Of a stretch of 25,866 nt of DNA, positions 4,303-21,326 are shown piece after piece. The stretch's first letter is position 1. Each line of letters opens with the position of its first letter. Origin of the DNA: a virus (lineage: Duplodnaviria; Heunggongvirae; Uroviricota; Caudoviricetes); IMG/VR virus record IMGVR_UViG_2724679538_000003, one strand, 5' to 3'. A program made the position numbers and the translations under genes. Below the pieces are notes generated by a model. That model did not search any database. It was not told where the DNA came from and saw nothing but the letters and a program-made list of their open reading frames with translations.

Positions 4303-4303
4303 G

Positions 4304-5299
4304 GTGACCGTGAGAGCACTACTGACCCCTGAAATTGCCCCGCGTATGGGGATCGTATTGTTCAGGCCAGGTTCAGAGCTGATGCCCCTGTTTATGCAGG
4401 GGCGTGTCCTGCTGGAGCCTGAGCCGGAACGTTATTCATCTTTTGCCAGTGGTGCCGTTCCGGCGGCATCACAACCGCTGGCGGATGATCCTGCCGTTCG
4501 GGCCGTGTTCCGCAATGAGGCAGTGATCCGTCGTGCTGGTGGCGTGGAATGTCTTGAAAGCTGGTTACTTCGTGAAAAAGGATGCCAGTGGCCTCATTCC
4601 GACTGGCACAGCGAGAACATGACCACAATGCGCCACGCGCCTGGCGCAATCCGTCTGTGCTGGCACTGCGATAACCAGCTGCGCGATCAGTTCACGGAAC
4701 GGCTGGAATCAATGGCAACGGATAACTGTGCCCGCTGGGTGTTGTCTGTTGTGCGTCGGGATCTCGGTTTTGATGACAGTCACGTTGTGACAATGCCGGA
4801 ACTGTGCTGGTGGCTGGTTCGTAATGACCTGGCGGATGCCTTACCGGAAAGTGCAGCCCATAAGGCACTGAGATTACCGAAGCCTGTTGTGCCATCTGTC
4901 ACCCGGGAAAGTGACCTTGTGCCTTCGATTCCTGCCACCAGCATCATCCAGGATAAAGCGAAAAAGGTGCTGGCGCTGAAAGTGGATCCGGAGTCGCCGG
5001 AGTCTTTTATGTTACGCCCCAAACGTCGCCGCTGGGTTAATGAAAAGTACACGCGCTGGGTTAAGACGCAGCCGTGCGCATGTTGTGGAAAGGCAGCTGA
5101 TGATCCCCACCACCTGATAGGCCACGGTCAGGGGGGAATGGGTACAAAAGCGCATGATCTCTTTGTGTTGCCTTTGTGCAGAAAGCATCACGAAGAGCTG
5201 CATGCGGATACCGTGACATTTGAAGAGAAGTATGGCTCCCAGCTGGAGCTGATATTTCGTTTTATCGATCGTGCGCTGGCAATAGGCGTACTGGCGTAA
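4304..5299 (+). CDS. DUF968-type phage protein with C-terminal Cys/His zinc-binding (HNH-like) module
   Basis: C-terminus CACCGKAADDPHHLIGHGQGGMGTKAHDLFVLPLCRKHHEELH resembles Qin ydfU-type DUF968. The start is uncertain (GTG 4304 or 4310, ATG 4346 or 4382). Confidence 0.65.
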   Translation: MTVRALLTPEIAPRMGIVLFRPGSELMPLFMQGRVLLEPEPERYSSFASGAVPAASQPLADDPAVRAVFRNEAVIRRAGGVECLESWLLREKGCQWPHSDWHSENMTTMRHAPGAIRLCWHCDNQLRDQFTERLESMATDNCARWVLSVVRRDLGFDDSHVVTMPELCWWLVRNDLADALPESAAHKALRLPKPVVPSVTRESDLVPSIPATSIIQDKAKKVLALKVDPESPESFMLRPKRRRWVNEKYTRWVKTQPCACCGKAADDPHHLIGHGQGGMGTKAHDLFVLPLCRKHHEELHADTVTFEEKYGSQLELIFRFIDRALAIGVLA

Positions 5300-5312
5300 G
5301 TGGAGAACAAGC

Positions 5313-6065
5313 ATGAACCTTGAAGCCTTACCAAAATATTACTCCCCAAAATCTCCAAAATTGAGTGATGACGCACCGGCGACAGGCTCGGGTGGTTTAA
5401 CAATTACAGATGTGATGGCTGCGCAGGGGATGGTGCAGTCGAAAGCACCGCTTGGGTTTGCCTTATTCCTGGCAAAAGTTGGTGTTCAGGATCCTCAGTT
5501 TGCGATTGAAGGTCTGCTCAATTACGCGATGGCACTGGATAACCCGACATTGAACAAATTGAGTGAAGAAACCCGGCTACAGATCATTCCTTACCTTGTG
5601 AATTTTGCCTTTGCTGATTATTCCAGGTCTGCGGCAAGTAAGGCTCGCTGTGAGCATTGTGCTGGTACTGGATTTCATAATGTATTGCGCGAGGTGGTGA
5701 AACACTCCAGAAGCGGGGAATCTGTTATCAAGGAAGAGTGGGTGAAGGAACTATGTCAGCATTGTCATGGTAAGGGAGAAGTCAGCACAGCGTGCAGAGG
5801 GTGTAAGGGTAAAGGTATTGTCCTGGATGAAAAAAGGACCCGGCTTCATGGCGCGCCTGTTTATAAGATTTGTGGGCGTTGCAATGGAAACCGGTTTAGT
5901 CGTTTACCAACGACACTGGCGCGGTGTCATGTCCAGAAGCTGGTACCAGACCTGACTGATTATCAGTGGTACAAAGGATATGCAGATGTCATTGATAAAC
6001 TGGTTACAAAGTGCTGGCAGGAAGAAGCATATGCTGAGGTGCAATTAAGAAAAGTGACGAGATAA
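5313..6065 (+). CDS. Late-gene antiterminator Q-like protein
   Basis: GGAGA SD, 250 aa, Cys-rich zinc-binding region (CEHCAGTG...CQHCHGKG...CRGCKGKG). Lies immediately upstream of a strong promoter and terminator, as Q lies before pR'/tR'. Confidence 0.8.
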   Translation: MNLEALPKYYSPKSPKLSDDAPATGSGGLTITDVMAAQGMVQSKAPLGFALFLAKVGVQDPQFAIEGLLNYAMALDNPTLNKLSEETRLQIIPYLVNFAFADYSRSAASKARCEHCAGTGFHNVLREVVKHSRSGESVIKEEWVKELCQHCHGKGEVSTACRGCKGKGIVLDEKRTRLHGAPVYKICGRCNGNRFSRLPTTLARCHVQKLVPDLTDYQWYKGYADVIDKLVTKCWQEEAYAEVQLRKVTR

Positions 6066-6096
6066 ATGATTTTCGCCGAAGATGGCGACGTAATGC

Positions 6097-6125
6097 TTGC
6101 ATTTTTCAAAAAATATGGATAAAAT
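6097..6125 (+). promoter_or_regulatory. Putative Q-dependent late promoter (pR'-like): -35 TTGCAT, 17-bp spacer, -10 TAAAAT
   Basis: TTGCAT at 6097-6102 and TAAAAT at 6120-6125, about 30 bp after the Q stop. Confidence 0.6.
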
Positions 6126-6171
6126 TTTTTCAACGATGGGCTTTATATACCCGACGTTAAGAAAAAGTAGA

Positions 6172-6197
6172 AAACCCGCTGATGAGCGGGTTTTTGT
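6172..6197 (+). terminator. Rho-independent terminator (tR'-like)
   Basis: Hairpin cccgct-gatg-agcggg (6175-6190) flanked by an A-run and TTTTT (6191-6195), about 50-70 nt downstream of the putative late promoter. Confidence 0.7.
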
Positions 6198-6480
6198 GCT
6201 TTAAATAGGGTAATAGAGATGTTGAATCTCATTCCGGGATTCATGTTTGTTTACTTATTATTTATCGGGTGACTTTGCCTGATGTTTAAAATGTTTTCTT
6301 CCAGTACTATGTCCCTAGATACAATGAGTCTGCATATTACATTATTAGCAGAGCTATTACGGTCAAAGTACAGCATAAGCTTTAAAAGCCAATCAACCAG
6401 TCATCAAGACAGACGGGGTTATTCATGAAAACTCTCCATGTTTGATTCGATGGGGCCTGAAATTAAAGCTTTAATATAGC

Positions 6481-6693
6481 TCATGAAAGGTAAACATTGG
6501 CAGCTGAAGGGCCACGCAGACCATTTATCCGGCAAAATTCCACGCGTAATCCGGTGGTAATTTCTTCTGCATCGCGGAGATTGAGCGCTGAAACATGAAG
6601 CTGGACATCGATACGACCATCGGATGGGGTGATAAGACCCTTGCCGCTTTTGCCGTCAAAGGTTTTGACAATTCCTGTCATTTTACGGGACAA
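6481..6693 (-). CDS. cspF: Cold-shock protein family, CspF-like
   Basis: 70 aa, [26 protein letters not shown]...[13 protein letters not shown]; matches the Qin CspF pattern as recalled. Confidence 0.85.
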
Positions 6694-6995
6694 AAAAAAA
6701 TTCCTTAATACTGATAACTGGGCGCACTATACACACGTTCCTGAAGAAAGCTATAGTTTTTTGATGGGGTTGAAGATGGCTGGATGTCTAAAATAAACAT
6801 TGCTTCATATGTTCAACTATGCGTTAATGATTGCGTCGGTTTGAAGAACAGACGATATACGAAGTAGTTTACTAAAGCAGTTCTCATTTCAGGTGTTATT
6901 CACTTATTCCTTCTTTGAGTCTCTCCAATTAAGTACGAAGTCGTTTCTGTTATACAAGCCATTTATGCCGAAAGGCTCAAGTTAAGGAATGTAGA

Positions 6996-7211
6996 ATGTC
7001 AAATAAAATGACTGGTTTAGTAAAATGGTTTAACGCTGATAAAGGTTTTGGCTTTATTTCTCCTGTTGATGGTAGTAAAGATGTGTTTGTGCATTTTTCT
7101 GCGATTCAGAATGATAATTTTCGAACCTTATTTGAAGGTCAAAAGGTTACCTTCTCTGTAGAGAGTGGTGCTAAAGGTCCTGCAGCAGCAAATGTCATAA
7201 TTACTGATTAA
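6996..7211 (+). CDS. cspB: Cold-shock protein, CspB-like
   Basis: 71 aa, [38 protein letters not shown]...; canonical CspA-family RNP motifs; about 290-bp upstream leader typical of csp genes. Confidence 0.9.
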
Positions 7212-7492
7212 AATTCATAGTTTGTCTGTATACGATAACGAAGAAGGCTGATGCCTGAGTGGAGATACAGACAGAGTGGTGAATATTGGATCTCTTTAAT
7301 AAATAGTAAGGAGGTCCAATACATGAAACAATGGCCAGCATATTTGGCAATAACTTAATCAGGAAAAGTATGCTAACCATTGTGGTGAAGTGCAGGTTTG
7401 CTGCATGAATAGTTTTACAGCAGAAGCTAACTGCTGGCATAGCAAAACAAAGTGCGTAAGTGGATGACTCCCACAAAAAGTACCACAATATT

Positions 7493-7516
7493 AAACCCGC
7501 TCAGGCGGGTTTTTTA
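7493..7516. terminator. Bidirectional rho-independent terminator
   Basis: aaa-cccgc-tcag-gcggg-tttttt; an A-run upstream and a T-run downstream let it work on both strands. Sits downstream of cspB (+) and of the minus-strand zinc-ribbon gene. Confidence 0.7.
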
Positions 7517-7574
7517 TTATCTGCTTTAAATATGTTATTAAAATATAAAAAATACTTGTTACGAATAAAATCAA

Positions 7575-7745
7575 TCAAGCTACAGCTTTAAGATTTGTCT
7601 GGAATACTTTGTTGCAATGAGGGCAGATCAAAAGGGCACCTTTTTGTACTCTTGAAAAACTGTGTTCTGACTCTTGGGTGCAGTTTGGGCAGGAACATTT
7701 AACGAGATAATTACGGCGTGATTTTGAGTCTTTACGTTCTGACAT
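7575..7745 (-). CDS. Small zinc-ribbon protein (56 aa; CxxC-x17-CxxC)
   Basis: Minus-strand ATG at 7745 with an AGGAAAAG SD upstream; MSERKDSKSRRNYLVKCSCPNCTQESEHSFSRVQKGALLICPHCNKVF...; terminator directly downstream. The track ORF extends to 7796 but the internal start has the SD. Confidence 0.55.
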   Translation of the reverse strand: MSERKDSKSRRNYLVKCSCPNCTQESEHSFSRVQKGALLICPHCNKVFQTNLKAVA

Positions 7746-7963
7746 AGGCTTTTCCTGTATAAATGGCCGTATACAGTACACTAAATATGAAAACATATCT
7801 CGTATTATTATTTAATATATGATTTTCTTTTAAAATAATTACCCACATTTTTAATGTGTCTGTTTTTTAGCGCCGTTGAGAACAACGTTTGCTATAAAAA
7901 CTAACCCATAGACTCCGATCTTTTCAAACATATTGCACCATCTGTGTACATCGGGGTGAGGAT

Positions 7964-8179
7964 ATGAAATCAATGGATAAGTTAACAACAGGTATCGCCT
8001 ATGGCACATCGGCTGGTAATGCTGGTTTCTGGGCATTGCAGTTACTCGATAAAGTAACTCCGTCACAGTGGGCTGCAATCGGTGTGCTGGGTAGTCTGGT
8101 TTTTGGCCTGCTGACGTATCTGACAAACCTTTATTTCAAGATTAAAGAAGACAGGCGTAAGGTTGCGAGAAGAGAGTAA
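7964..8179 (+). CDS. Class II holin (phage 21 S-like pinholin) with dual-start motif
   Basis: GGGGTGAGG SD; starts MKSMDKL (Met1 and Met4 dual start as in S21); two TMDs ([19 protein letters not shown] and [23 protein letters not shown]); charged C-terminus. Confidence 0.85.
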
Positions 8180-8183
8180 TCCA

Positions 8184-8735
8184 ATGACACAAGACTATGA
8201 ACTGGTTGTGAAAGGAGTCCGCAATTTTGAGAATAAAGTGGCGGTAACTGTAGCCTTACGGGACAAAAAACGCTTTGACGGTGAAATTTTTGACCTGGAC
8301 ATCTCGCTGGACCGTGTTGAAGGTGCCGCGCTGGAGTTTTATGAGGCAGCAGCCAGAATGAGAATCAGACAGGTATTCCTGGATGTTGCTGCCGGGTTAT
8401 GTGTAGGGGATGAGCAGTCGCCGGAAAAGCGCCCCATAATTTTAGAGGCGCAGAATGTGTGGATAACCTACAAAGGAAAGCTACCGGGAAGAATTACTGG
8501 TTCTCTGAAGACGCCGCCGACGGCATTGCGGTCAGAAAAAGATGATATTGAATCGCCCATTGAAAAACTGGAGGGCAGCGTCGCTGATCTGAATAAAAAA
8601 TTGTCGGTGCTGATCCCTTCTGAAGATGAAAAAAAACGCCGCGATGAGCAGTTTGCGGCGTTTTACGATTATTGCATTGAAGTTACTCGCAGGAGTTTTG
8701 TGAAGATTTTTGAGGAGGGTAAATCTCTTCAGTAA
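8184..8735 (+). CDS. Hypothetical protein (183 aa) inserted between holin and endolysin; occupies the position ydfR has in Qin
   Basis: ATG at 8184 with a GAGAG SD 7 nt upstream, directly after the holin stop; soluble, charged, no TMD. Family not assignable from sequence. Confidence 0.7.
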   Translation: MTQDYELVVKGVRNFENKVAVTVALRDKKRFDGEIFDLDISLDRVEGAALEFYEAAARMRIRQVFLDVAAGLCVGDEQSPEKRPIILEAQNVWITYKGKLPGRITGSLKTPPTALRSEKDDIESPIEKLEGSVADLNKKLSVLIPSEDEKKRRDEQFAAFYDYCIEVTRRSFVKIFEEGKSLQ

Positions 8736-8943
8736 GCTTAATGGCGGACGCTGCAATTAATTCAGGAAGGTCCGCAAGGTCATCTGTCAGTGGATATGAT
8801 GAAAAATCGGCGGCAGTTCTGTTAAGAAGCGCTTTAACTAATTCCTTTTCCTTCTCCGGCAACAAGTTGATTAGAGCTACGACTGCTTGCCTGAGTGCGA
8901 TTAAATCAGCAAAAGTTTGTTTTGGTAGATTTGTGTAATCCAT
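8683..8943 (-). CDS. Hypothetical small acidic protein (86 aa), convergent with and overlapping the 3' end of the 8184-8735 gene
   Basis: Minus-strand ATG at 8943 with an AGAGG SD 5 nt upstream; MDYTNLPKQTFADLIALRQAVVALINLLPEKEKELVKALL...; 53-bp convergent overlap. Confidence 0.55.
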   Translation of the reverse strand: MDYTNLPKQTFADLIALRQAVVALINLLPEKEKELVKALLNRTAADFSSYPLTDDLADLPELIAASAIKLTEEIYPPQKSSQNSCE

Positions 8944-9056
8944 AGTCACCTCTGTGTTTATCAGATTGACATCCTCCTCCCGCCACTGCCCATCACTGGT
9001 GAGGTAAGATTTAACATATCCGGGGATTTGAAGCCGATAAATCCTGATAAATATCC

Positions 9057-10084
<1,028 letters not shown>

Positions 10085-10447
10085 ATTAATATTAAATCGG
10101 ATTATTTTTAGCGCTGAATGTGAAATTTAAATAAAAAGGACTCTTCCATGAGTCAAAATCCTTGAAATCTTAAGGGTAAGATAAAAGGTCATTAGACAGA
10201 ATGACACGTTTTATTAATAAATAAAGCTATTGTTTCATTCGTGTGTTTTTCTTTACAAAAGTAATCCTTGCTATGGTTGGTTAATCATGCGTTAATGGTG
10301 TTCTGGTTTGTTACAAAATTATCTGAAGCAGTCATTGTTATAATTTTATTATTTGTACCTCTTGAGATTTCCTTGTTGGTTTTTCTCTCTGATATTTTTT
10401 TTCGGACCATTCTGCCCAAGGGCTAACTTCTTCAAAAGGTAATAATG

Positions 10448-10660
10448 ATGTCTAACAAAATGACTGGTTTAGTGAAATGGTTTAACCCTGAAAAAGGTTT
10501 TGGTTTCATCACGCCGAAAGATGGTAGCAAAGATGTGTTTGTCCATTTCTCAGCTATTCAGAGCAACGATTTCAAAACGTTAACTGAGAATCAGGAAGTC
10601 GAATTTGGTATTGAGAACGGACCTAAAGGCCCCGCGGCTGTTCATGTAGTGGCACTTTGA
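10448..10660 (+). CDS. cspI: Cold-shock protein, CspI-like
   Basis: [45 protein letters not shown]...; about 350-bp AT-rich leader upstream. Confidence 0.9.
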
Positions 10661-10865
10661 GGTAGAAAATATTACAAACCATATTCACTTTAGATGCCCG
10701 TGTTGCCATGGTTCGCAGTATAGAACATCATCTTTTGATGTTTCTGACAGGAATCCTTTCGGGGCAAAATGTATCTTTTGTAAATCAATGATGATTACAT
10801 TTGATAATATTTCACAATACTTAAATGTTAGCCGTCTGTCGTTAGATTTAAGAAAGTGAAAATGA

Positions 10866-10888
10866 AGGCTCCTTCGGGAGCTTTTTTG
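10866..10888 (+). terminator. Rho-independent terminator
   Basis: ggctcc-ttcg-ggagc hairpin followed by TTTTTT (10882-10887). Confidence 0.75.
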
Positions 10889-10931
10889 CTTAGTGTCTAG
10901 TCGATGGATACTCACATATTACGGTAACATT

Positions 10932-11162
10932 ATGAAAAAAATAATAGTTTTTTTTAACTCTGAACCAGCAATGGTAGTGCCAGTGATGACCGGAGTTAAC
11001 ACCATCATGCGTGAATATCCAAATGGCGAAACAACACACCTCACTGTAATGGCTGCAGGGTTTCCATCTCTGACCGGAGATCATAAAGTCATTTATGTAG
11101 CAGCGGATCGACATGTAACTTCAGAAGAAATTCTGGAAGCAGCAATGAGACTCTTGAATTGA
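10932..11162 (+). CDS. Hypothetical protein (76 aa)
   Basis: ORF MKKIIVFFNSEPAMVVPVMTGVNTIMREYPNGETTHLTVMAAGFPSL...; weak SD, no family recognised. Sits where small accessory genes lie in Qin. Confidence 0.35.
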   Translation: MKKIIVFFNSEPAMVVPVMTGVNTIMREYPNGETTHLTVMAAGFPSLTGDHKVIYVAADRHVTSEEILEAAMRLLN

Positions 11163-11334
11163 TTTGATTCTAATGCATTGATAATAAATGATAATCATTT
11201 TTATCTGTTTGTGTGAAATTTAGACCATCGTATGTTGATTATTGCGATGTTTCATCTTATCTTTTATACGTTTGCTCCATATAATTGACACTACTGTGTA
11301 CCAGGAAAGTCATAACAGACTAAAAGAGGAAATG

Positions 11335-11508
11335 ATGAACATTGAAGAGTTAAAAACAAAAACAGAAGCAGATATTTCTGAATATATAACAAAAAAAATC
11401 ATTGAGCTTAAGAAAAAGACCGGGAAAGAAGTTACCAATATCCAGTTTACTGCACGGGAAAAAATGACTGGTCTTGAAAGCTATGATATCAAGATTGATT
11501 TAATCTAG
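11335..11508 (+). CDS. gnsB: GnsA/GnsB family protein
   Basis: AGAGGA SD; 57 aa, MNIEELKTKTEADISEYITKKIIELKKKTGKEVTNIQFTAREKMTGLESYDIKIDLI, matches the GnsB pattern as recalled. Confidence 0.8.
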   Translation: MNIEELKTKTEADISEYITKKIIELKKKTGKEVTNIQFTAREKMTGLESYDIKIDLI

Positions 11509-11803
11509 TATGTTTATAGTATTAGCATCAATTTCTCATCAGATGCTATTCAACAATACAAATTACCCATAAACCTCGTTTTTACGGGGTTTTGTTATAT
11601 TTAAACATTACCGAATAGATATAAATCTCGATTGTCGATGGTATTGGTTGTGTGACAATACCTAGTCTTTCCGGTATGCCTGAAGAGAATACAAACGACA
11701 GATTATGTAAGGGAAACGCGCTGAAACTTTCACTCTTTCATGCTGAGTGATTTGACGTTATATCTTTAGCCGCAAGTGAAGAGCAAACGCATGGAGCGAC
11801 AAA

Positions 11804-12010
11804 ATGCATAAAGATCAATACACTGATGCCCCCTCCCAGGAGCAGGTTCGTGTAAAAACTATGCTTAATAGCACCATTTCGATGGGTTACCCGGATGTTG
11901 TAATTGCATGTATAGAACATCAAGTATCTCTGGAAGCATTCAGGGCAATTGAGGCCGCGTTAGTAAAGCACGATAAGACTACGAAGGATTATTCCCTGGT
12001 GGTTGACTGA
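11804..12010 (+). CDS. Hypothetical protein (68 aa)
   Basis: GGAG SD 7 nt upstream of ATG; [53 protein letters not shown]...; family not assigned. Confidence 0.45.
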
Positions 12011-12364
12011 TCACCATAACTGCTAACCATTCTGACCATTTCACAAGTGACAGAGTCAATATCGTATTCTGTCACTGTCAGGCTAATACAGTACTGCAAT
12101 TCAACTACAGCAATGCCTCGTATTTAGGTGAATTTACAATATCGTCCAGTTCTGATGCCGGCTGCATTTCTAAAGATAAGGCATTTCGGTTCGCGTATTT
12201 TCCCCTCATGCTCGTCAGTCCTGTGCGTAGGAAGAAACAGGACACTCACACTAATTTGTGTGGGCATGCTGTGATGTCCTTCTGAATTATTCCTATGCCA
12301 TTATGTAAAGCGCTGTATCAGATGCTCGTCACGGCTGTCAGGCTGTCGGGTCCTCCCGGTGGGG

Positions 12365-12400
12365 GCCCCTGCCACGGGGCGGGAGCGTCGCGGAAAAAGG
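12365..12400. other. Putative cos site (cosN-like terminase nicking region)
   Basis: GGGCGGGAGCGTCGCGG (12377-12393) closely resembles lambda cosN GGGCGGCGACCTCGCGG as recalled; lies in a GC-rich quasi-symmetric segment about 170-200 bp upstream of the terminase small subunit start, as in lambda. Confidence 0.55.
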
Positions 12401-12562
12401 CTAGTTTTTGCATTTTTATCGGCCACCATCATCTTTGCATCTTATTGATTATTAATGGTTATTTGTTTTTTGTATGTCGAATTGAGTGTTTTTTGTTCGA
12501 CATCGAACGCGTTTTCTTAAAGTTGTTCGCACGATGCATGTTTAAAGCTCTCCGGAGGAAAT

Positions 12563-13054
12563 ATGGATCATGAGTTGAAAAAACTGGTGCTGAATATTAA
12601 TCAACTGGCGGCTTTATCTGGTCTGCACCGCCAGACTGTCGTGGCAAGACTGAAAAACATTCGTCCCGCTGGTGGACATGACAAACTCAAGCTATACCGG
12701 TTGACCGATATTCTGACTGAATTTATGGGGTTACCACCGCCGGTTGCTGAGGGCGAAATGGATCCACATGAACGCAAAGCCTGGTATCAGTCTGAACGTG
12801 AGCGTCTTAAGTTCGAACAGGAAACGGCACAACTCATTCCGGCCAGTGATGTCAGACGGGAGTTTGCCATCTGGGCAAAAGCGGTCGTGCAGGTGCTGGA
12901 GACATTACCGGATATTCTGGAACGTGACTGCGGCCTGCAGCCTGCCGCTGTGAGCCGTGTTCAGTCCATTATTGATGATCTGCGCGATCAGATAGCCCTG
13001 CGGGTGACCGAAGCAGGTGCGGATGATGAGGAGGAATTACAGCAGGAGGAGTAA
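12563..13054 (+). CDS. Terminase small subunit (Nu1-like)
   Basis: GGAGG SD; N-terminal HTH-like segment (LVLNINQLAALSGLHRQTVVARLKN), acidic C-terminus; immediately precedes the large subunit with ATGCTGA overlap. Confidence 0.8.
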   Translation: MDHELKKLVLNINQLAALSGLHRQTVVARLKNIRPAGGHDKLKLYRLTDILTEFMGLPPPVAEGEMDPHERKAWYQSERERLKFEQETAQLIPASDVRREFAIWAKAVVQVLETLPDILERDCGLQPAAVSRVQSIIDDLRDQIALRVTEAGADDEEELQQEE

Positions 13055-15156
13055 TGCTGAATCAGGAAACCGCAAAGGCAGCACGAACCGATTCAGGTTA
13101 TATCCTTCGCGCACCGAGACGAATGCTGGTTGCTGATGCCGTTGCTCAGTATATGCGGGTACCCATGGGGGCCGGGAATTCAGTCCCGTGGGATCCGCTG
13201 GTGGCACCGTATGTTATTGAGCCGATGAACTGCCTGGCCTCGCGTGAATACGACGCAGTGATATTTGTTGGCCCGGCACGAACTGGCAAGACTATCGGCC
13301 TGATTGACGGCTGGGTGATTTACAATGTGATTTGCGATCCTGCTGATATGCTGATCATTCAGATGACGGAGGAAAAAGCCCGCGAACACTCCAAAAAACG
13401 ACTTGCCAGAACGTTTCGCGTCAGCCCGGAAGTGGTCAGTCGCCTGAGTCCGAACAAAAATGACAACAACGTTTATGACAGAACATTCCTTGCTGGCAAC
13501 TACCTGAAAATCGGCTGGCCGTCAGTCAATATCATGTCCTCATCAGATTATAAATGCGTGGCGCTGACGGATTATGACCGTTTTCCGGAAGATATTGATG
13601 GCGAGGGGGATGCCTTCTCTCTTGCCTCAAAACGTACCACCACATTTATGTCCAGTGGTATGACGCTGGTGGAGAGTTCCCCCGGCAGGGATGTAAAGGA
13701 TGTGAAATGGCGACGGACTTCACCGCATGAGGCTCCACCAACCACGGGGATACTGTCGCTCTATAACCGTGGCGATCGCCGTCGCTGGTACTGGCCCTGT
13801 CCACACTGTGGTGAGTATTTTCAGCCCTGCGGCGATGTGGTTGCTGGTTTCCGTGATATTGCCGATCCCGTGCTGGCAAGTGAGGCGGCTTATATTCAGT
13901 GTCCTTCCTGTTCAGGACGGATTATGCCTGAACAAAAACGTGAGCTGAACGGACGTGGGGTCTGGTTGCGGGATGGTGAATCCATCAATGCGGATGGCAG
14001 TCGTTATGGTGATCCCCGACGCTCACGTATTGCGTCATTCTGGATGGAGGGTCCGGCAGCTGCTTACCAGACACTCTCGCAACTCGTTTACAAACTGCTT
14101 ACTGCAGAACAGGAATACGAGACAACCGGAAGTGAAGAAACACTCAAGACGGTTATCAATACCGACTGGGGATTACCTTATCTTCCCCGTGCCAGCATGG
14201 AGCAACGAAAAAGTGAACTGCTTGAGCAGCGGGCAGAGCCAGTTCCTTCCCGCAGTGTGCCGGATGGCGTTAATTTCCTGGTGGCGACAGTGGATGTGCA
14301 GGCGGGACGTCATCGCCGTTTTGTGGTTCAGGTAACGGGCTATGGCAGCCGTGGCGAACGCTGGATTATTGATCGTTACAACATCACGCAGTCATTGCGC
14401 GGTGACAGCGACGGGGAGAGCCAGCGAATTGATCCGGCCAGCTATCCGGAAGACTGGGATGTCCTGCTGACGGATGTTTTTCATAAAAGCTGGCCGCTGG
14501 CCTCCGATCCTTCTCAACAAATGCGACTGATGGCAATGGCGGTGGACTCCGGCGGTGAAGACGGGGTCACTGATAATGCCTATAAATTCTGGCGTCGTTG
14601 CCGTCGTGATGGCCTTGGTAAACGTATTTACCTGTTTAAGGGCGACAGCATCCGGCGCGCAAAACTGATCACCCGTACATTCCCTGATAACACCGGACGA
14701 ACGGGCCGACGGGCGCAGGCCGCAGGTGATGTGCCGCTCTGGCTTCTTCAGACGGATGCCCTGAAAGACCGGGTGAATAACGCGTTATGGCGTGACTCTC
14801 CAGGTCCCGGCTATGTGCATTTCCCTGACTGGCTGGGGAGCTGGTTTTACGACGAACTGACGTATGAAGAGCGGAGTAGTGACGGGAAATGGAGTAAGCC
14901 GGGTCGCGGTGCCAACGAAGCTTTTGACCTGATGGTGTATGCCGAGGCTCTGGTCATTCTGCATGGATACGAAAAGATCCGCTGGCCGGATGCACCGGAG
15001 TGGGCGAGCCTGGAAACCTGGCTGGAGTGTGTCCCGGACAGTACCGAACCGTCACCCTCACCGGAACCGGTATCCACGCCTGTTAAAAAACAAAAACGGA
15101 AGAAAACAGTAACTGACGATGTTAACCCCTGGCTGACTTCCGGAGGATGGTTATGA
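13054..15156 (+). CDS. Terminase large subunit (lambda gpA family)
   Basis: 700 aa; Walker A-like GPARTGKT, metal-binding CPHCGE motif, nuclease-like C-terminal region; AGGAGGA SD. Confidence 0.9.
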   Translation: MLNQETAKAARTDSGYILRAPRRMLVADAVAQYMRVPMGAGNSVPWDPLVAPYVIEPMNCLASREYDAVIFVGPARTGKTIGLIDGWVIYNVICDPADMLIIQMTEEKAREHSKKRLARTFRVSPEVVSRLSPNKNDNNVYDRTFLAGNYLKIGWPSVNIMSSSDYKCVALTDYDRFPEDIDGEGDAFSLASKRTTTFMSSGMTLVESSPGRDVKDVKWRRTSPHEAPPTTGILSLYNRGDRRRWYWPCPHCGEYFQPCGDVVAGFRDIADPVLASEAAYIQCPSCSGRIMPEQKRELNGRGVWLRDGESINADGSRYGDPRRSRIASFWMEGPAAAYQTLSQLVYKLLTAEQEYETTGSEETLKTVINTDWGLPYLPRASMEQRKSELLEQRAEPVPSRSVPDGVNFLVATVDVQAGRHRRFVVQVTGYGSRGERWIIDRYNITQSLRGDSDGESQRIDPASYPEDWDVLLTDVFHKSWPLASDPSQQMRLMAMAVDSGGEDGVTDNAYKFWRRCRRDGLGKRIYLFKGDSIRRAKLITRTFPDNTGRTGRRAQAAGDVPLWLLQTDALKDRVNNALWRDSPGPGYVHFPDWLGSWFYDELTYEERSSDGKWSKPGRGANEAFDLMVYAEALVILHGYEKIRWPDAPEWASLETWLECVPDSTEPSPSPEPVSTPVKKQKRKKTVTDDVNPWLTSGGWL

Positions 15157-15365
15157 ACCAGAATGATATCGAAGCCATGATTCAGCGTTATACGGAAGCT
15201 GAAATGGCGGTACTGGACGGAAAATCCGTCACCTTTAATGGTCAGCAGATGACCATGGAAAACTTATCTGAGATCCGGCAGGGACGGCAGGAGTGGGAGC
15301 GCCGCCTTGCGGCTCTGATTACACGACGACGGGGGCATCCTGGGTACCGGCTGGCGAGGTTCTGA
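15153..15365 (+). CDS. Head-tail joining protein gpW-like
   Basis: 70 aa ending ...RRRGHPGYRLARF, like the lambda W C-terminus (RRRGPAGFYV) as recalled. ATG 15153 has GGAGG 6 nt upstream; ATG 15147 abuts the SD. Confidence 0.8.
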   Translation: MNQNDIEAMIQRYTEAEMAVLDGKSVTFNGQQMTMENLSEIRQGRQEWERRLAALITRRRGHPGYRLARF

Positions 15366-16873
15366 TGGCAATTCTTGATGATGTGATTGGCGTTTTTTCA
15401 CCAGGATGGAAAGCGGCAAGGCTGCGTTCCCGTGCGGTGATCCAGGCTTATGAGGCCGTAAAAACGACACGGACACACAAAGCCCGGCGGGAAAACCGAA
15501 CTGCCGACCAGTTAAGCCAGTACGGGGCCGTGTCGTTACGTGAGCAGGCCCGTTACCTTGATAACAACCACGATCTGGTTATTGGTGTATTTGACAAGCT
15601 GGAAGAACGGGTGGTGGGGAAAAACGGGATTATTGTCGAGCCACATCCGGTATTACGCAATGGGGCCATTGCCCGTGATCTGGCAGCGGAGATACGCACC
15701 CGATGGAGTGAATGGTCTGTCAGTCCGGAAGTCACCGGGCAGTTTACCCGTCCGATGCTGGAACGTCTGATGCTGCGTACCTGGCTGCGCGATGGTGAGG
15801 TGTTTGCCCAGATGGTTTCCGGGCGCATAAACAGCCTGACGCCTTCTGCCGGTGTTCATTTCTGGCTGGAGGCGCTCGAGCCGGACTTTATTCCCATGAC
15901 CAGTGATGAGAGCAACAGGCTGAATCAGGGCGTGTTTGTTGATGACTGGGGGCGTCCCGAAAAATATCTGGTGTATAAAAGCCGTCCCGTATCCGGGCGG
16001 CAGATGGAAACCAAAGAAGTGGATGCAGAGCGAATGCTGCATCTTAAATTTGTTCGCCGTCTGCACCAGATGCGCGGGACGTCTTTGTTGTCCGGTGTGC
16101 TGATCCGCCTCAGTGCCCTGAAAGAGTATGAAGATTCTGAGCTGACTGCAGCAAGGATCGCCGCTGCTCTGGGGATGTACATCCGGAAAGGCGACGGGCA
16201 GAGCTATGAACCGGATGGTAATGGCAGCAAGGAGAATGAACGCGAGCTTACCATTCAGCCAGGCATTATTTACGACGATCTGAAACCCGGCGAAGAAATC
16301 GGAATGGTGAAGTCGGATCGTCCCAATCCTAACCTTGAAACTTTTCGTAATGGTCAGTTGCGTGCCGTGGCGGCGGGCAGTCGTCTGAGTTTTTCCAGTA
16401 CGGCACGCAACTATAACGGCACTTACAGCGCCCAGCGTCAGGAACTGGTTGAGTCTACTGATGGCTACCTGATCCTGCAGGACTGGTTTATTGGTGCCGT
16501 CACCCGCCCGATGTATCGTGCCTGGCTGAAACAGGCTGTGGCATCCGGTGTTATCAGGTTACCCCGCGATCTTGACCGTTCTTCACTGTATACCGCGGTG
16601 TATTCCGGACCAGTGATGCCGTGGATTGACCCTGTTAAGGAGGCTGAGGCCTGGAAAATCCAGATTCGTGGTGGAGCGGCGACAGAATCAGACTGGGTAC
16701 GTGCTGGTGGTCGTAATCCGGATGATGTCAAACGTCGGCGCAAGGCCGAAATTGATGAAAACCGCAAGCTGGATCTGGTATTTGATACCGATCCGGCCAG
16801 TGATAAAGGAGGCAGCAGTGCCGCAACGAAACGACAGGAGCCGCAGCACACCGACGACCAGTCCGAAGAATAA
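15365..16873 (+). CDS. Portal protein (lambda gpB family)
   Basis: ATGA overlap with the W stop; 502 aa; canonical position between W and the head protease. Confidence 0.8.
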   Translation: MAILDDVIGVFSPGWKAARLRSRAVIQAYEAVKTTRTHKARRENRTADQLSQYGAVSLREQARYLDNNHDLVIGVFDKLEERVVGKNGIIVEPHPVLRNGAIARDLAAEIRTRWSEWSVSPEVTGQFTRPMLERLMLRTWLRDGEVFAQMVSGRINSLTPSAGVHFWLEALEPDFIPMTSDESNRLNQGVFVDDWGRPEKYLVYKSRPVSGRQMETKEVDAERMLHLKFVRRLHQMRGTSLLSGVLIRLSALKEYEDSELTAARIAAALGMYIRKGDGQSYEPDGNGSKENERELTIQPGIIYDDLKPGEEIGMVKSDRPNPNLETFRNGQLRAVAAGSRLSFSSTARNYNGTYSAQRQELVESTDGYLILQDWFIGAVTRPMYRAWLKQAVASGVIRLPRDLDRSSLYTAVYSGPVMPWIDPVKEAEAWKIQIRGGAATESDWVRAGGRNPDDVKRRRKAEIDENRKLDLVFDTDPASDKGGSSAATKRQEPQHTDDQSEE

Positions 16874-18845
16874 TTCCTGGTTCAGGATGCAGGCTGGTCA
16901 CCAGAGTGACGCGGATATTTATATTTATGACGAGATTGGTTTCTGGGGTGTTACAGCGAAGCAGTTTATCAGTGATCTGAATGCACTGGGCGATATCACC
17001 CACATTAATCTCCATATTAATTCACCGGGTGGCGATGTCTTTGAAGGCATCGCCATTTTTAATGCGCTGAAAACACATGGTGCGTCCATTACCGTTTATG
17101 TCGACGGTGTGGCGGCGTCAATGGCGTCGGTCATTGCGATGGTGGGAAACCCGGTCATTATGCCGGAAAACACCTTCATGATGATTCATAAACCATTTGG
17201 CTTTACGGGCGGTGATGCGGAGGACATGCGCACCTATGCCGACCTGCTCGATAAGGTTGAGGCGGTTCTGTTACCCGCTTATGCACAGAAAACCGGGAAA
17301 ACCACCGATGAAATTGCTGCCATGCTGGCGGATGAGACCTGGATGTCCGGTGCCGAATGTCTGGCACATGGATTTGCTGATCAGGTAACGCCAGCCGTTA
17401 AGGCAATGGCATGTATTCAGTCAAAACGTACAGAGGAATTTAAAAAGATGCCGGAATCCATTCGAAACATGATTACTCCGCCACGCAACAGTGCTCCACG
17501 CGTACAGGATGATGAACCTGCAGCCTCTCGGACGCCAGTGCAGGCAGCAGCACCCGTGGTGGATGAAAACAGTATCCGTGCGCAGGTACTGGCAGAGCAA
17601 AAAGCGCGTGTAAACGGTATTAATGATCTGTTTGCCATGTTTGGCGGGCGTTATCAGACGCTGCAGGCTCAGTGTCTTGCCGATCCTGAATGTTCGCTGG
17701 AGCAGGCCCGCGAAAAGCTGTTGAACGAGATGGGGCGCGAGTCCACGCCATCCAATAAAAATACCCCGGCTCATATTTATGCCGGTAACGGTAATTTTGT
17801 GGGGGACGGGATCCGCCAGGCGCTGATGGCGCGTGCCGGATTTGAAAAAACCGAACGTGATAATGTCTACAACGGGATGACCCTGCGTGAATATGCCCGT
17901 ATGTCACTGACTGAACGGGGTATTGGGGTTTCCGGTTATAACCCGATGCAGATGGTCGGTGCGGCGTTCACACACAGTACGTCTGACTTCGGTAATATTC
18001 TGCTGGATGTTGCGAACAAAGCCATTCTGCAGGGCTGGGAAGATGCCCCTGAAACCTATGAACAGTGGACGCGGAAAGGTCAGTTGTCTGATTTTAAAAT
18101 TGCCCATCGTGTGGGTATGGGGGGCTTCAGTGCTCTGCGTCAGGTGCGTGAAGGGGCGGAATATAAATACGTCACCACCGGAGATAAACAGGCCACTATT
18201 GCACTGGCGACCTATGGCGAGCTGTTCAGTATCACCCGTCAGGCCATTATCAATGATGATCTGAATATGCTGACCGATGTCCCGATGAAACTGGGCCGTG
18301 CGGCGAAATCCACTATTGCCGATCTGGTTTATGCCATTCTGACGTCTAACCCGAAAATCTCCACAGATAATGTAAGTCTGTTCGATAAAGCGAAACATGC
18401 AAACGTACTGGAGAGCGCTGCAATGGACGTGGCATCGCTGGATAAAGCCCGCCAGTTGATGCGCGTTCAGAAAGAGGGGGAGCGTCATCTGAATATTCGT
18501 CCTGCGTTCGTACTGGTACCGACGGCGATGGAGTCTGTTGCTAACCAGGTCATTCGCTCCTCAAGTGTCAAGGGGGCTGACATTAACGCCGGTATTATTA
18601 ACCCGGTGAAAGATTTTGCGACCGTTATTGCAGAGCCTCGTCTTGATGATAACAGCCAGACCACTTTCTACCTGGCTGCGTCCAAAGGCTCCGATACGAT
18701 TGAAGTGGCTTATCTCAACGGTGTGGATACGCCATATATTGATCAGATGGAGGGCTTCAGTGTGGATGGCGTGACAACGAAAGTGCGTATTGACGCCGGT
18801 GTCGCGCCAGTTGATCACCGCGGTCTGGTGAAATGTACGGCGTAA
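16818..18845 (+). CDS. Fused prohead protease (ClpP/S14-S49-like) and HK97-fold major capsid protein (about 675 aa)
   Basis: N-terminal protease-like region (IYIYDEIGFWGV...INSPGGDVFEGIAIFNALKTH...AASMASVIAMVG...MMIHKP), then a linker, then a C-terminal capsid-like domain of about 330 aa. Start ambiguous: GTG 16818 with AAGGAGG SD (overlaps portal 3' end) or ATG 16887. Confidence 0.75.
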   Translation: MPQRNDRSRSTPTTSPKNNSWFRMQAGHQSDADIYIYDEIGFWGVTAKQFISDLNALGDITHINLHINSPGGDVFEGIAIFNALKTHGASITVYVDGVAASMASVIAMVGNPVIMPENTFMMIHKPFGFTGGDAEDMRTYADLLDKVEAVLLPAYAQKTGKTTDEIAAMLADETWMSGAECLAHGFADQVTPAVKAMACIQSKRTEEFKKMPESIRNMITPPRNSAPRVQDDEPAASRTPVQAAAPVVDENSIRAQVLAEQKARVNGINDLFAMFGGRYQTLQAQCLADPECSLEQAREKLLNEMGRESTPSNKNTPAHIYAGNGNFVGDGIRQALMARAGFEKTERDNVYNGMTLREYARMSLTERGIGVSGYNPMQMVGAAFTHSTSDFGNILLDVANKAILQGWEDAPETYEQWTRKGQLSDFKIAHRVGMGGFSALRQVREGAEYKYVTTGDKQATIALATYGELFSITRQAIINDDLNMLTDVPMKLGRAAKSTIADLVYAILTSNPKISTDNVSLFDKAKHANVLESAAMDVASLDKARQLMRVQKEGERHLNIRPAFVLVPTAMESVANQVIRSSSVKGADINAGIINPVKDFATVIAEPRLDDNSQTTFYLAASKGSDTIEVAYLNGVDTPYIDQMEGFSVDGVTTKVRIDAGVAPVDHRGLVKCTA

Positions 18846-18868
18846 ACGTCGCAGACAACAACTCTGAT

Positions 18869-18888
18869 GGCCCGTAAGGGCTTTTTTT
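18869..18888 (+). terminator. Weak or partial rho-independent terminator after the capsid gene
   Basis: ggccc-gtaa-gggc followed by 7 T; the short stem suggests an attenuator rather than a full stop. Confidence 0.4.
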
Positions 18889-18931
18889 GTACCTGAAATC
18901 AGCCCCTGAACGGGGCTGTGCGGAGACAGTT

Positions 18932-19255
18932 ATGGCAAAGAATTTTGTAGAAGAAGGAAAAACGGTGGCGATTGTTGCCAGTGCAGCCATCAGCAGCGGA
19001 GATCTGGTGCAGGTGGGCGATGTTTTTGCGGTGGCGCTGACCGATATTCCACAGGGTGAAACAGGCGACGGCATGACCGAAGGTGTGTTTATGCTGCCTA
19101 AGCTGAAAACGGATGACATGAAAACGGGTAAGAAGGTTTATCTGAAGTCCGGAAAAGTTCAGCTGACTAACAGCGGCTCTGATCCGCTGGTCGGGGTTGT
19201 CTGGGCAGATGCCGGAACCAGTGCAGAAGAAGTGCCGGTAAAACTCAATGTCTGA
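18932..19255 (+). CDS. Small capsid-associated protein (DUF2190-like; possible decoration protein)
   Basis: GGAGA SD; 107 aa; sits between the major capsid gene and FII; weak recollection of the DUF2190 family. Confidence 0.5.
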   Translation: MAKNFVEEGKTVAIVASAAISSGDLVQVGDVFAVALTDIPQGETGDGMTEGVFMLPKLKTDDMKTGKKVYLKSGKVQLTNSGSDPLVGVVWADAGTSAEEVPVKLNV

Positions 19256-19523: not shown

Positions 19524-19534
19524 AGAGGTGTGGG

Positions 19535-20511: not shown

Positions 20512-20522
20512 AGGAGGTGGCA

Positions 20523-21266: not shown

Positions 21267-21286
21267 CAGGACGATACTCATCATTT

Positions 21287-21310
21287 GCCCCGGTTATCCG
21301 GGGCTTTTTT
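21287..21310 (+). terminator. Rho-independent terminator between V and G
   Basis: gccccgg-ttat-ccggggc (7-bp GC stem) followed by TTTTTT. Confidence 0.8.
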
Positions 21311-21326
21311 GCAGGTGGAGAACATG

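Follow-up and report, generated by a model that had tools for sequence, protein, structure and literature searches.

The DNA between the last lysis gene and the packaging genes of this element is very probably an accessory region, assembled from two modules of different ancestry, at the right end of a Qin-like lambdoid prophage. The whole stretch that was analyzed (the window) is 25,866 nucleotides long, and all coordinates refer to it. Module 1 (approximately 10268–11602) is a cold-shock 'moron' cassette that contains cspI, ynfQ, a terminator (T1), ynfN, gnsB, and a second terminator (T2); module 2 (11638–12376) is a lambda-type right end that contains ybcW, a downstream hairpin, and cos-proximal DNA. 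All of the genes in this island are encoded by the late-gene strand.

The modules meet at a mosaic joint (11638–11645), where BLAST breakpoints and alignments place both the end of Qin-type cassette homology and the start of lambda-type right-end homology. In BLAST comparisons, window positions 10000–11645 share 91% nucleotide identity with both K-12 Qin and phage Tritos, and positions 11638–12155 share 81% identity with lambda 47579–48090; the segment 12156–12340 is unrelated to lambda. The ybcV/ydfO gene (DUF1398) that is present at the joint position in Tritos, DLP12, and Qin is missing from this element. At the E. coli locus that matches best (99.4% identity), the genes are annotated as cspI, ynfQ, ynfN, gnsB, and hypothetical protein. 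The left boundary of the island is the final lysis gene, rzpQ (9587–10084, + strand; Rz-like, DUF2514), identified by Pfam (DUF2514, E = 1.9e-38) and by the RefSeq annotation of the same 99.4% identical locus; the right boundary is the first packaging gene, which encodes a DUF1441 protein in the small-terminase-subunit position (12563–13054, + strand; Pfam DUF1441, E = 4.6e-44) and is followed by the gene for the terminase large subunit.

The original prediction described this region as AT-rich, horizontally acquired cargo between Rz and cos, and both parts of that description hold. The GC content is 0.341 for positions 10085–11645 and 0.37 for the whole island, whereas the lysis genes have 0.471 and the packaging and head genes 0.534; the cassette, whose composition sets it apart as a mosaic module, is present in some lambdoid relatives and absent from others. 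It holds together as a unit: Citrobacter prophages with another holin and terminase keep its four genes in this order, and csp, ymcF, and ynfN are neighbors in one locus where the identity of YnfN is only 59%. The criteria for a moron, reportedly due to Hendrix and Juhala, are insertion between otherwise adjacent genes, an own promoter and terminator, and deviant composition. Here, comparison with Qin and other lambdoid prophages shows that the space between Rz and ybcW/cos is variable, with the csp cassette in this element and bor plus p78 (lambda) or borD plus ybcV (DLP12) in its place; the cassette has its own terminators (T1 and T2), and its GC content (0.341) deviates from that of the surroundings (0.47–0.53). 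Its promoters are candidates read by eye, and expression is known from the sibling elements Tritos and K-12 Qin (vide infra). A definition of morons is quoted in PMC9928086.

The cspI-like and gnsB-like genes that had been recognized in the sequence are confirmed. The first, cspI (10448–10660, + strand), encodes a 70-residue cold-shock protein (Pfam CSD, E = 1.7e-31) whose translation is identical to K-12 CspI and that has the RNP1 and RNP2 motifs KGFGFI and VFVHF; its dN/dS relative to Citrobacter is 0.025. Its 5′UTR (10290–10447, + strand) is a cspA-type RNA thermometer by Rfam (RF01766), with a match at 10290–10706 that scores 112.4 bits (gathering score 78; E = 2.4e-28). Wang and colleagues are said to have given, in 1999, a figure of 145 nt for the cspI UTR, and they reportedly found that cspI is induced on temperature downshift. 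The 5′UTR of K-12 cspI is experimentally a thermometer, and cold induction is known from the literature on the identical K-12 CspI, encoded by a 91% identical locus (PMC13271884). A candidate cspI promoter (TTGCTA, 17 nt, GTTAAT; 10268–10296, + strand) can be read by eye; it includes a TG at 10288–10289 (extended −10) and is located directly upstream of the start of the Rfam cspA model at 10290. A candidate gnsB promoter (TTATCT, 17 nt, TATAAT; 11257–11285, + strand) was read in the same manner. A strict consensus scan reported neither candidate, nor any other + strand promoter within the island, and promoter-like matches in the consensus scan are not commoner than in shuffled sequences.

The interval downstream of cspI (10660–10866) had been described as about 200 nt of untranslated transcript; instead, it contains a 62-codon gene, ynfQ (10671–10859, + strand; RefSeq ynfQ/ymcF), that encodes a small, Cys-rich, YmcF-like protein. 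Residues 1–61 of the 62 match Pfam PF23641 with E = 6.3e-33 and 113.2 bits (cutoff 27). The gene is absent from ORF lists that are built on ATG, GTG, and TTG because its start codon is ATT; this codon is 10 nt beyond the TGA stop of cspI and is preceded by a Shine-Dalgarno sequence (GAGG) that overlaps that stop, and the frame has a TAG at 10647 and no ATG, GTG, or TTG ahead of the ATT. The ATT start and the arrangement of two Cys pairs (CPCC...CIFC) are both shared with K-12 ynfQ, K-12 ymcF, Citrobacter, and a distant locus (L092). The dN/dS for ynfQ is 0.13, versus values >1 in shifted frames.

Two terminators had also been predicted, and both are convincing. T1 (10865–10887, + strand; AAGGCTCC-TTCG-GGAGCTTT followed by a T-run; −13 kcal/mol on folding) has an 8-bp stem, a UUCG loop, and U6. 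T2 (11571–11592 or, in the longer delimitation, 11571–11602; + strand) was detected by a terminator scan and has a T-rich tail after a 9-bp stem that includes G-U pairs (−11 kcal/mol on folding); it closes the cold-shock cassette. Both are unchanged across E. coli alleles. Citrobacter has a different stem at the T1 position (AGGCCCC-TTAT-GGGGCCT plus T6) and a different, stronger hairpin at the T2 position; a terminator was not found at the T1 position of the distant locus L092. T1 is probably leaky, that is, an attenuator between ynfQ and ynfN. Because T1, with U6 after a GC stem and a UUCG loop, resembles an efficient terminator, we infer read-through into ynfN in this element only from co-expression in relatives. 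A 12-codon remnant of ynfR (10862–10900, + strand), recognized by comparison with K-12 ynfR, overlaps T1; a TAT-to-TAG change cuts short the 21-residue small protein of K-12, and RefSeq calls the remnant a 'too short' pseudogene. YnfR spans T1, and the K-12 YnfR-SPA protein is cold-induced (PMC6001520).

Of the two small ORFs that had been listed as unassigned, both exist and neither is unassigned: profile searches place them in named, conserved families. The ORF at 10932–11162 (+ strand) is a full-length, 76-residue ynfN (RefSeq WP_000720960; phrog_3425, E = 1e-55) with dN/dS 0.11; its N-terminus, MKKVIVFFNS, is kept by Citrobacter and by remoter YnfN homologues in the alignment. The 51-residue YnfN of K-12 is to be corrected to a frameshift derivative of this 76-residue protein, caused by the loss of one nucleotide (T8 to T7; window 10948–10955). 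AF2 models YnfN with pLDDT 88, and the fold searches with this model gave no match and no informative function. The next gene, gnsB (11335–11508, + strand), encodes a 57-residue member of the GnsA/GnsB family (Pfam PF08178, E = 4.4e-33) that matches GnsA in the PDB (4xo2, E = 8.8e-20); its dN/dS is 0.06.

The second ORF, at 11804–12010 (+ strand), encodes a 68-residue member of the YbcW/lambda p79 family (phrog_657, E = 5.9e-47) that shares 78% amino-acid identity with both lambda p79 and DLP12 YbcW and that is located upstream of cos in lambda, DLP12, and Tritos as well; the preceding segment (11646–11803) is the conserved ybcW upstream region that is common to lambda. Its dN/dS is 0.39–0.44, versus >1 in shifted frames. 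AF2 predicts a three-helix protein (pLDDT 80) for which the fold search gave generic matches only. A homologue search returned 118 matches among 1.84 billion representatives; among the ten divergent matches that were retrieved, eight appear to be lambda p79 copies full of errors and two are truly diverged, and a scan of genome contigs found mostly lambda-type copies in assemblies of unrelated taxa. We rejected control of ybcW by PdhR: the PdhR-type box of DLP12 and Tritos is located in a segment that is absent here, and matches to TGGTNNNACC (PdhR-type) in the window are rarer than in shuffles.

A hairpin with arms AGTGACAGA (12046–12054) and TCTGTCACT (12068–12076; + strand) was located by repeat search and folding 36 nt past the ybcW stop; it has no U-tract. 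The original prediction called this repeat and a 7-bp inverted repeat (GTCCTGT/ACAGGAC; 12218–12224 and 12237–12243) strong; both are present, and neither is strong by count. When the region is shuffled with its dinucleotides preserved, 22% of the shuffles contain a perfect inverted repeat of 9 bp with a loop of ≤20 nt, and 7-bp inverted repeats occur at a mean of 4.06 per shuffle, that is, at chance level. In these shuffle tests nothing distinguishes the 7-bp and 8-bp repeats, and the 9-bp repeat is unexceptional by count, so the inverted repeats were rejected as special elements. Additional support is restricted to the 12046 hairpin, which has a fold z-score of −3.9 and arms that are constant, with a varying loop, in lambda, DLP12, Tritos, and locus L083; this conservation test samples only about two independent lineages, because the remote ybcW matches are mostly lambda-type copies. 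The 7-bp repeat has a fold z-score of −1.1, and its right arm is lost in L083. The 12046 hairpin could be either an mRNA 3′-end stabilizer or a DNA site.

As had been proposed, cos is directly downstream of the island (12348–12388, + strand), as judged from the Tritos end, the lambda alignment, and the positions of the motifs. The cosQ-like GGGTCCT (12348–12354) is approximately 29–30 nt upstream of the nick, for which cleavage is predicted after 12376, the window position at which the linear Tritos record ends; a G-rich, 12-nt cohesive end, GGGCGGGAGCGT, would then occupy 12377–12388. We likened GGGTCCT and the end at 12377 to what we take to be the lambda cosQ and cosN sequences; cosN here differs from the presumed lambda cosN at 3 of 12 positions.

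Three other explanations of the region were weighed against a two-module accessory region. It is extremely unlikely that 10660–10890 and 11510–11800 are non-coding transcript with possible sRNAs and that the two small ORFs are new cargo genes. The ORF list has no + strand ATG, GTG, or TTG ORF in 10660–10866, no ORF under selection was found in 11510–11800, and T1 and T2 could be the 3′-ends of sRNAs; however, 10671–10859 is a Pfam YmcF-like gene under purifying selection that is annotated in K-12 and by PGAP, both small ORFs belong to named families, and the second interval consists of the 3′-end of gnsB with T2 (11510–11645) followed by the ybcW upstream region (11646–11803). With the gathering score, Rfam found only the cspA element in the whole window and no sRNA family in either interval; at E ≤ 1 on 10000–12600 it added one sub-threshold match to a eukaryotic lncRNA, taken as chance. 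The sRNA reading was rejected for both intervals, and for 10660–10890 it is largely refuted because this stretch is the coding sequence of ynfQ. That the region is the decaying, functionless filler of a cryptic prophage, with its ORFs and hairpins as relics, is scarcely credible. The nonsense codon in ynfR, the frameshifts of ynfN in K-12 and CP61, and the IS elements that adjoin the cassette in some genomes are the signs of decay; since this element has a truncated ynfR and K-12 a frameshifted ynfN, not every part of the cassette is indispensable. Against decay, purifying selection is seen in E. coli and Citrobacter for each of the five genes (dN/dS 0.025 to 0.13 in the cassette and 0.39 in ybcW, versus 0.7 to 4 in shifted frames), and at both terminator positions one stem has been replaced by another. 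Sequenced phages that have the cassette include Tritos, mEp460, HannyBb, and 2H10, and it is present in 2094 of 5426 complete E. coli genomes (~39%; ≥80% of the query covered); in relatives it is associated with at least three different packaging modules. It is also expressed in lysogens, and deletion of cspI causes a competition defect (PMC7406224, PMC9928086).

A toxin-antitoxin or defense module, in which GnsB would be an 'addiction module toxin', YnfN would be the antitoxin in a YmcE-like position, and the pair would serve to abort infections or to maintain the prophage, is very unlikely. Both Pfam and RefSeq call the GnsA/GnsB family a toxin, ymcE-gnsA is among the listed type II pairs of E. 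coli (PMC8484670), and YnfN occupies the place of YmcE (each 76 residues). However, YnfN and YmcE do not align at E ≤ 100, and the region contains no YmcE homologue; ynfN and gnsB are separated by 172 nt, whereas ymcE and gnsA overlap; and, in recent work, overexpression of gnsA or gnsB rescues growth instead of killing. A distant relative has ynfN after csp-ymcF with its own terminator and no gns gene, so the conserved partner of ynfN is csp/ymcF rather than gns. PADLOC matched only the generic CSD and had no match for YnfQ, YnfN, GnsB, or YbcW. On the PADLOC result and the lack of similarity between YnfN and YmcE, the defense/toxin-antitoxin reading was rejected.

Expression of the moron cassette has been demonstrated for sibling elements, as described in the literature. 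Expression from Tritos in LF82 exceeds the local prophage background 93-fold for cspI and 27-fold for ynfN (PMC9928086); AZT co-induces cspI, ynfQ, and ynfN (6.5-, 5.9-, and 5.8-fold; PMC11228462); and the profiles of cspI and ynfN run parallel in long-term stationary phase (PMC7406224). The cassette of this element would be expressed independently from a repressed prophage. Transcription of cspI would start at its own promoter, and translation would depend on the cspA-type 5′UTR thermometer opening in the cold; ynfQ would be translated from the AUU 10 nt past the cspI stop, probably by coupling or re-initiation. T1 would halt most transcripts, with a read-through fraction that carries ynfN; gnsB would follow, probably from its own promoter, and T2 would terminate the cassette. 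In the literature, gnsA and gnsB raise unsaturated fatty acids, gnsB when it is overproduced. In lytic growth, Q-antiterminated transcription would pass T1, T2, and cos into the terminase genes; we infer both this late read-through and the AUU coupling.

A more elaborate version of this scheme is possible, although we hold it only tentatively: T1 may be a conditional attenuator, with the RNA-melting, antiterminating activity of CspI or a paralogue allowing read-through in the cold or upon accumulation of Csp proteins. The product of cspI would then turn on ynfN (and an intact ynfR), that is, the phage would carry a feed-forward cold circuit. The AUU start and the Shine-Dalgarno sequence that overlaps the csp stop would form a second level of control, in which the synthesis of YnfQ depends on the translation of cspI, and the AUU start would also link this synthesis to discrimination by initiation factors; YnfN, with its confident AF2 model and no structural relative, would be the uncharacterized output of the circuit.

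The region has already been described: every gene is annotated in K-12, RefSeq, or lambda. Little changes for the biology, as earlier work has dissected the cspI thermometer and has quantified cspI and ynfN as morons of a sibling prophage; the lesson for reading a sequence by itself is that an apparent 200-nt untranslated gap may conceal a conserved gene with an ATT start.

The K-12 Qin prophage (rzpQ-cspI-ynfQ-ynfR-ynfN-gnsB; b1553-b1550, b4724, b4749) has the same genes in the same order and on the same strand relative to Rz, with identical CspI, identical T1 and T2, and an ATT start in ynfQ. It differs in ynfN (T7 frameshift, 51 residues; intact with 76 residues here), in ynfR (21 residues; cut to 12 codons here), and by a 35-nt indel past gnsB; downstream, Qin has ydfO and ynfO on the opposite strand and a degraded nohA, whereas in this element ybcW is followed by a cos that appears intact and by full packaging genes. 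Phage Tritos (a prophage of AIEC LF82; OV696610), whose morons, cspI and ynfN among them, were defined by transcriptomics of the lysogen, shares the layout of lysis genes, cassette, ybcW, and cos, with 91% identity in the cassette and 87% in the ybcW module; it differs by a minus-strand ybcV (DUF1398) between gnsB and ybcW, located in a 589-nt segment with a PdhR-type box that is absent here.

The chromosomal cspG-ymcF-ymcE-gnsA locus of K-12 has the paralogous order of csp, an ATT-start ymcF 10 nt past the csp stop, and gns (74% nucleotide identity between cspI-ynfQ and cspG-ymcF and 73% between gnsB and gnsA); however, its middle gene, ymcE, is unrelated to ynfN and overlaps both neighbors, and the locus has no phage context. 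The right ends of lambda (bor, p78, p79, cosQ, cosN) and DLP12 (borD, ybcV, ybcW, ylcI, nohD) share ybcW/p79, its upstream region, and the downstream hairpin (81% identical in lambda), as well as the cosQ-like GGGTCCT and a similar cohesive-end sequence; both have opposite-strand bor and p78/ybcV where this element has the cold-shock cassette. Citrobacter prophages (L088–L091), which differ in their holin, in their lambda-type Nu1/GpA terminase, and in having no ybcW and a cos within about 90 nt of the gns terminator, have the same CSD-YmcF-YnfN-Gns order between a DUF2514 Rz and the terminase (Nu1), with terminators after ymcF and gns, an ATT start in ymcF, and ~72–74% amino-acid identity in YnfN.

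The window corresponds to the late region of an E. coli Qin-like lambdoid prophage; over positions 3700-23391, it matches a prophage of E. coli O145:H28 RM12761 at 98.5-99% identity. In that prophage the Q antiterminator is followed by cspF/cspB, the holin gene essQ, ydfR, the lysozyme gene rrrQ, and rzpQ, then by cspI, ynfQ, ynfN, gnsB, and a gene for a hypothetical protein, and then by genes for a DUF1441 protein, the terminase large subunit, the portal, and head and tail proteins. The island (10085-12340) is the interval from rzpQ (9587-10084; DUF2514), its left neighbor, to the packaging genes; the genes of its cassette (cspI, 10448-10660; ynfQ; ynfN; gnsB, 11335-11508) lie on the same strand as the late genes. 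The original prediction of AT-rich cargo is broadly right; the island is an accessory region that was known before. The GC content is 0.341 across 10085-11645 and 0.454 across 11646-12376, compared with 0.471 for the lysis genes and 0.534 for the packaging/head genes.

A second cold-shock cluster (6481-7274), with cspF (6481-6693, minus strand) and cspB (6996-7211), is located between Q (5313-6065) and the holin gene (7964-8179); this interval is likewise AT-rich (GC 0.374), and its match to the cspA thermoregulator (6835-7274; 156 bits) is stronger than that of cspI (112 bits). The first 3.7 kb, where the window diverges from its closest E. coli relative, includes side-by-side Rfam matches to isrK (443-519; 61 bits) and C4 antisense RNA (544-631; 81 bits) within an ORF at 83-1231; this pair (443-631) resembles a P1/P7-type c4/ant immunity module within a lambdoid prophage.

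The approximately 200 nt that follow cspI had been read as untranslated transcript; however, they are the gene ynfQ. Translation of 10671-10859 yields 62 residues that match the Pfam YmcF-like family over their full length (E=6.3e-33; 113 bits, cutoff 27), and RefSeq names the product ynfQ or ‘cold shock small protein YmcF’ (K-12 ynfQ is b4724). The dN/dS relative to the Citrobacter prophages that carry the cassette is 0.13 in the coding frame and >1 in the other two frames. The start codon is ATT, 10 nt past the cspI TGA, with a GAGG Shine-Dalgarno sequence that overlaps the cspI stop; no ATG, GTG, or TTG occurs in frame upstream, back to the TAG at 10647, so the gene is missing from ORF lists and from the original prediction. 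The same arrangement is found in K-12 ynfQ, its chromosomal paralogue ymcF (after cspG), the Citrobacter prophages, and a distant locus near icd (L092). The ATT start, the Shine-Dalgarno sequence over the csp stop, and a spacing of 10-11 nt are kept in five diverged loci (window 10658-10673, L003, L005, L089, and L092); this pattern points to termination-reinitiation coupling or to initiation-factor-sensitive translation.

Two small ORFs (10932-11162 and 11804-12010) are present as predicted, but both are named genes, ynfN and ybcW/lambda p79 (phrog_3425 and phrog_657), rather than unassigned. The first is YnfN in RefSeq and matches phrog_3425 across all 76 residues. The annotated K-12 YnfN has 51 residues; the T8 run at 10948-10955 (codons 6-8) is T7 in K-12, so the first 25 codons are broken there. 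The T7 form is found in K-12 and strain CP61_Sichuan, with the frameshift flagged by PGAP, whereas other K-12-like alleles keep T8 and are 231 nt long; thus, the 51-residue K-12 protein is a truncated derivative. Homologues of YnfN are few (52 clusters, from E. coli, Citrobacter, and some unnamed metagenomic sequences), and the N-terminus MKKVIVFFNS is retained in those down to 51-59% identity. For ynfN as a whole, dN/dS is 0.11; its first 25 codons show saturation of synonymous changes and a dN of 0.17. The reading frame ynfR (10862-10900), which extends through the terminator hairpin that precedes ynfN and beyond, is cut to 12 codons here by a TAT-to-TAG change (21 residues in K-12), and no ynfR-like ORF is present in Citrobacter, so ynfR seems to be lineage-specific; the tagged K-12 YnfR protein is cold-induced (PMC6001520).

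The second ORF matches phrog_657 (E=6e-47) and shares 78% identity with p79 of lambda (47738-47944) and with YbcW of DLP12; judged by its sequence, it is a member of the YbcW/lambda p79 family. Residues 17-68 are nearly invariant and the first 16 variable; dN/dS is 0.39-0.44 (>1 in shifted frames). Structure prediction yields a three-helix protein, and its structural matches are generic only. In DLP12, the ybcV and ybcW mRNAs drop approximately tenfold without PdhR (PMC7660256); a PdhR-type box is located within the spacer, in its ybcV-proximal part, and that part is missing here. The family is narrow (118 matches among 1.84 billion representatives), and eight of the 10 divergent matches retrieved resemble error-laden copies of lambda p79. 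Lambda-type p79 also occurs in assemblies labeled Pseudomonas, Kitasatospora, Cohnella, Shewanella, and others, often on contigs of ∼3.5 kb (L098-L131), and protein collections also hold error-laden variants (P0056, P0112, P0180-P0282); these look like control-DNA contamination and noisy reads, not real diversity.

Both predicted terminators were located. T1, between ynfQ and ynfN (10865-10887; predicted at 10866-10888), is AAGGCTCC-TTCG-GGAGCTTT followed by a T-run (−13 kcal/mol); T2, after gnsB (11571-11592; predicted as a weaker G-U-containing hairpin near 11565-11592), has a 9-bp stem that includes G-U pairs and a T-rich tail. Their fold z-scores are modest (about −1.5 to −1.6); better evidence that they are functional comes from the Citrobacter prophages, in which hairpins with different sequences occupy the matching positions, one after ymcF (AGGCCCC-TTAT-GGGGCCT plus T6) and another after gns. 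T1 and T2 receive terminator scores on the minus strand as well, and a minus-strand terminator-like hairpin (10139-10154; GACTC-ATGGAA-GAGTC then CTTTTTATTT) is located just past rzpQ; these signals may insulate the cassette in both directions. The stretch from the gnsB stop to T2 includes a 35-nt segment (11509-11545), with a 7-bp inverted repeat (TAGCATC/GATGCTA) starting at 11523, that this element shares with strain A23 and that is absent in K-12 and in Tritos, a prophage of AIEC LF82 (OV696610).

The cspI 5′UTR in the window is of the cspA type (Rfam, 112 bits). Published data describe the expression of these genes in sibling elements. There, the cspI 5′UTR changes structure in the cold, exposing the ribosome-binding site (PMC13271884). 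In the repressed Tritos prophage, cspI and ynfN are transcribed 93-fold and 27-fold over local background (PMC9928086). The responses of cspI, ynfQ, and ynfN to AZT and to loss of SspA are near-identical (PMC11228462); in long-term stationary phase cspI and ynfN respond almost alike, and a cspI deletion is outcompeted (PMC7406224). Overexpression of gnsA or gnsB increases unsaturated fatty acids and rescues cold-sensitive growth. We infer that cspI is transcribed from a promoter at about 10268-10296, that ynfQ would be translated from its AUU in a manner coupled to cspI, and that ynfN mRNA would arise by partial read-through of T1; the 44-nt gap that separates T1 from the start of ynfN has no room for a promoter. 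Likewise, gnsB would have its own promoter, with a perfect TATAAT at 11280. In lambda late transcription, Q-modified polymerase reads through terminators; during lytic growth it would similarly pass T1 and T2. The one mildly novel reading, in which T1 would be an attenuator that responds to Csp and feeds ynfN, with the AUU start tying ynfQ to cspI, is a tentative proposal that we consider rather doubtful.

Other interpretations fare less well. The original prediction proposed sRNAs in non-coding transcript at 10660-10890 and 11510-11800; this fails for the first interval, which encodes ynfQ, and lacks support for the second, which has no Rfam match and, given an alignment boundary at 11638-11645, is the 3′ end of gnsB with T2 followed by the conserved ybcW upstream region. 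A toxin-antitoxin system, with GnsB as toxin and YnfN as antitoxin, is not supported: a YmcE-like partner is absent, the ynfN-gnsB gap is 172 nt, ynfN travels with csp/ymcF instead of gns, and PADLOC gives no match for YnfQ, YnfN, GnsB, or YbcW. The idea that the island is relic DNA is contradicted by purifying selection on its genes, by their carriage in sequenced phage genomes, and by their expression in a sibling prophage (PMC9928086).

At the right end, the two inverted repeats described as strong are present, a 9-bp repeat at 12046/12068 and a 7-bp repeat at 12218/12237, but they are unremarkable by count: a perfect 9-bp repeat with a loop of ≤20 nt occurs in 22% of dinucleotide-preserving shuffles, and 7-bp repeats average four per shuffle. 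The 12046 hairpin is located 36 nt past the ybcW stop, lacks a U-tract, and has a fold z-score of −3.9; its 8-9-bp arms are identical in lambda, DLP12, Tritos, and one IMG/VR relative (L083), while the loop varies (several substitutions, one indel). This conservation is suggestive at best because it involves only about two independent lineages; the hairpin could be either an mRNA 3′-end stabilizer or a DNA site. The repeat at 12218 is unsupported (z-score −1.1; right arm lost in L083). The placement of the island between Rz and cos is correct: the end of the Tritos record maps to 12376, GGGTCCT, the cosQ heptamer of lambda, is at 12348-12354, and the post-nick sequence at 12377, the presumed 12-nt cohesive end GGGCGGGAGCGT, differs at three positions from lambda GGGCGGCGACCT. 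Beyond the nick, an inverted repeat (ATGTCGAA/TTCGACAT; 12474-12503) and more TCGAAC copies ahead of the DUF1441 gene may be a cosB or small-terminase binding site. Among the IMG/VR relatives (L007-L086), the island is 94-100% identical, whereas the DNA after cos (compared with 12377-13600) falls into at least three classes (DUF1441 gene 100%; DUF1441 gene 89%; no match, with the terminase gene 71%); cos is thus a recombination boundary between the lysis/moron and packaging modules.

The cassette is a conserved unit. At least 80% of it is found in 2094 of 5426 complete E. coli genomes, it is carried by the sequenced phages Tritos, mEp460_ev081, HannyBb, and 2H10, and among 80 IMG/VR relatives it adjoins at least three different packaging modules, with identity falling at cos. 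Window 10000-11645 is 91% identical to K-12 Qin and to Tritos; past the joint at 11638-11645, the identity is 87% to Tritos (11638-12376) and 81% to lambda 47579-48090 (11638-12155). The joint is occupied by a DUF1398 gene (ybcV/ydfO) on the opposite strand in Tritos, Qin, and DLP12 and by p78 in lambda; in this element it is empty. The Citrobacter prophages keep this gene order (cold-shock protein, YmcF-like protein, YnfN, Gns) between a DUF2514 Rz and the terminase, but with another holin and a lambda-type Nu1/GpA terminase. In L092, whose YnfN is 59% identical, csp is followed by ymcF with an ATT start and then by ynfN, after which comes a terminator; this locus has neither a terminator before ynfN nor a gns gene, which argues that csp-ymcF-ynfN is the oldest linkage. 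The chromosomal cspG-ymcF-ymcE-gnsA locus is a paralogue of the cassette (74% and 73% nucleotide identity), although its middle gene is unrelated.
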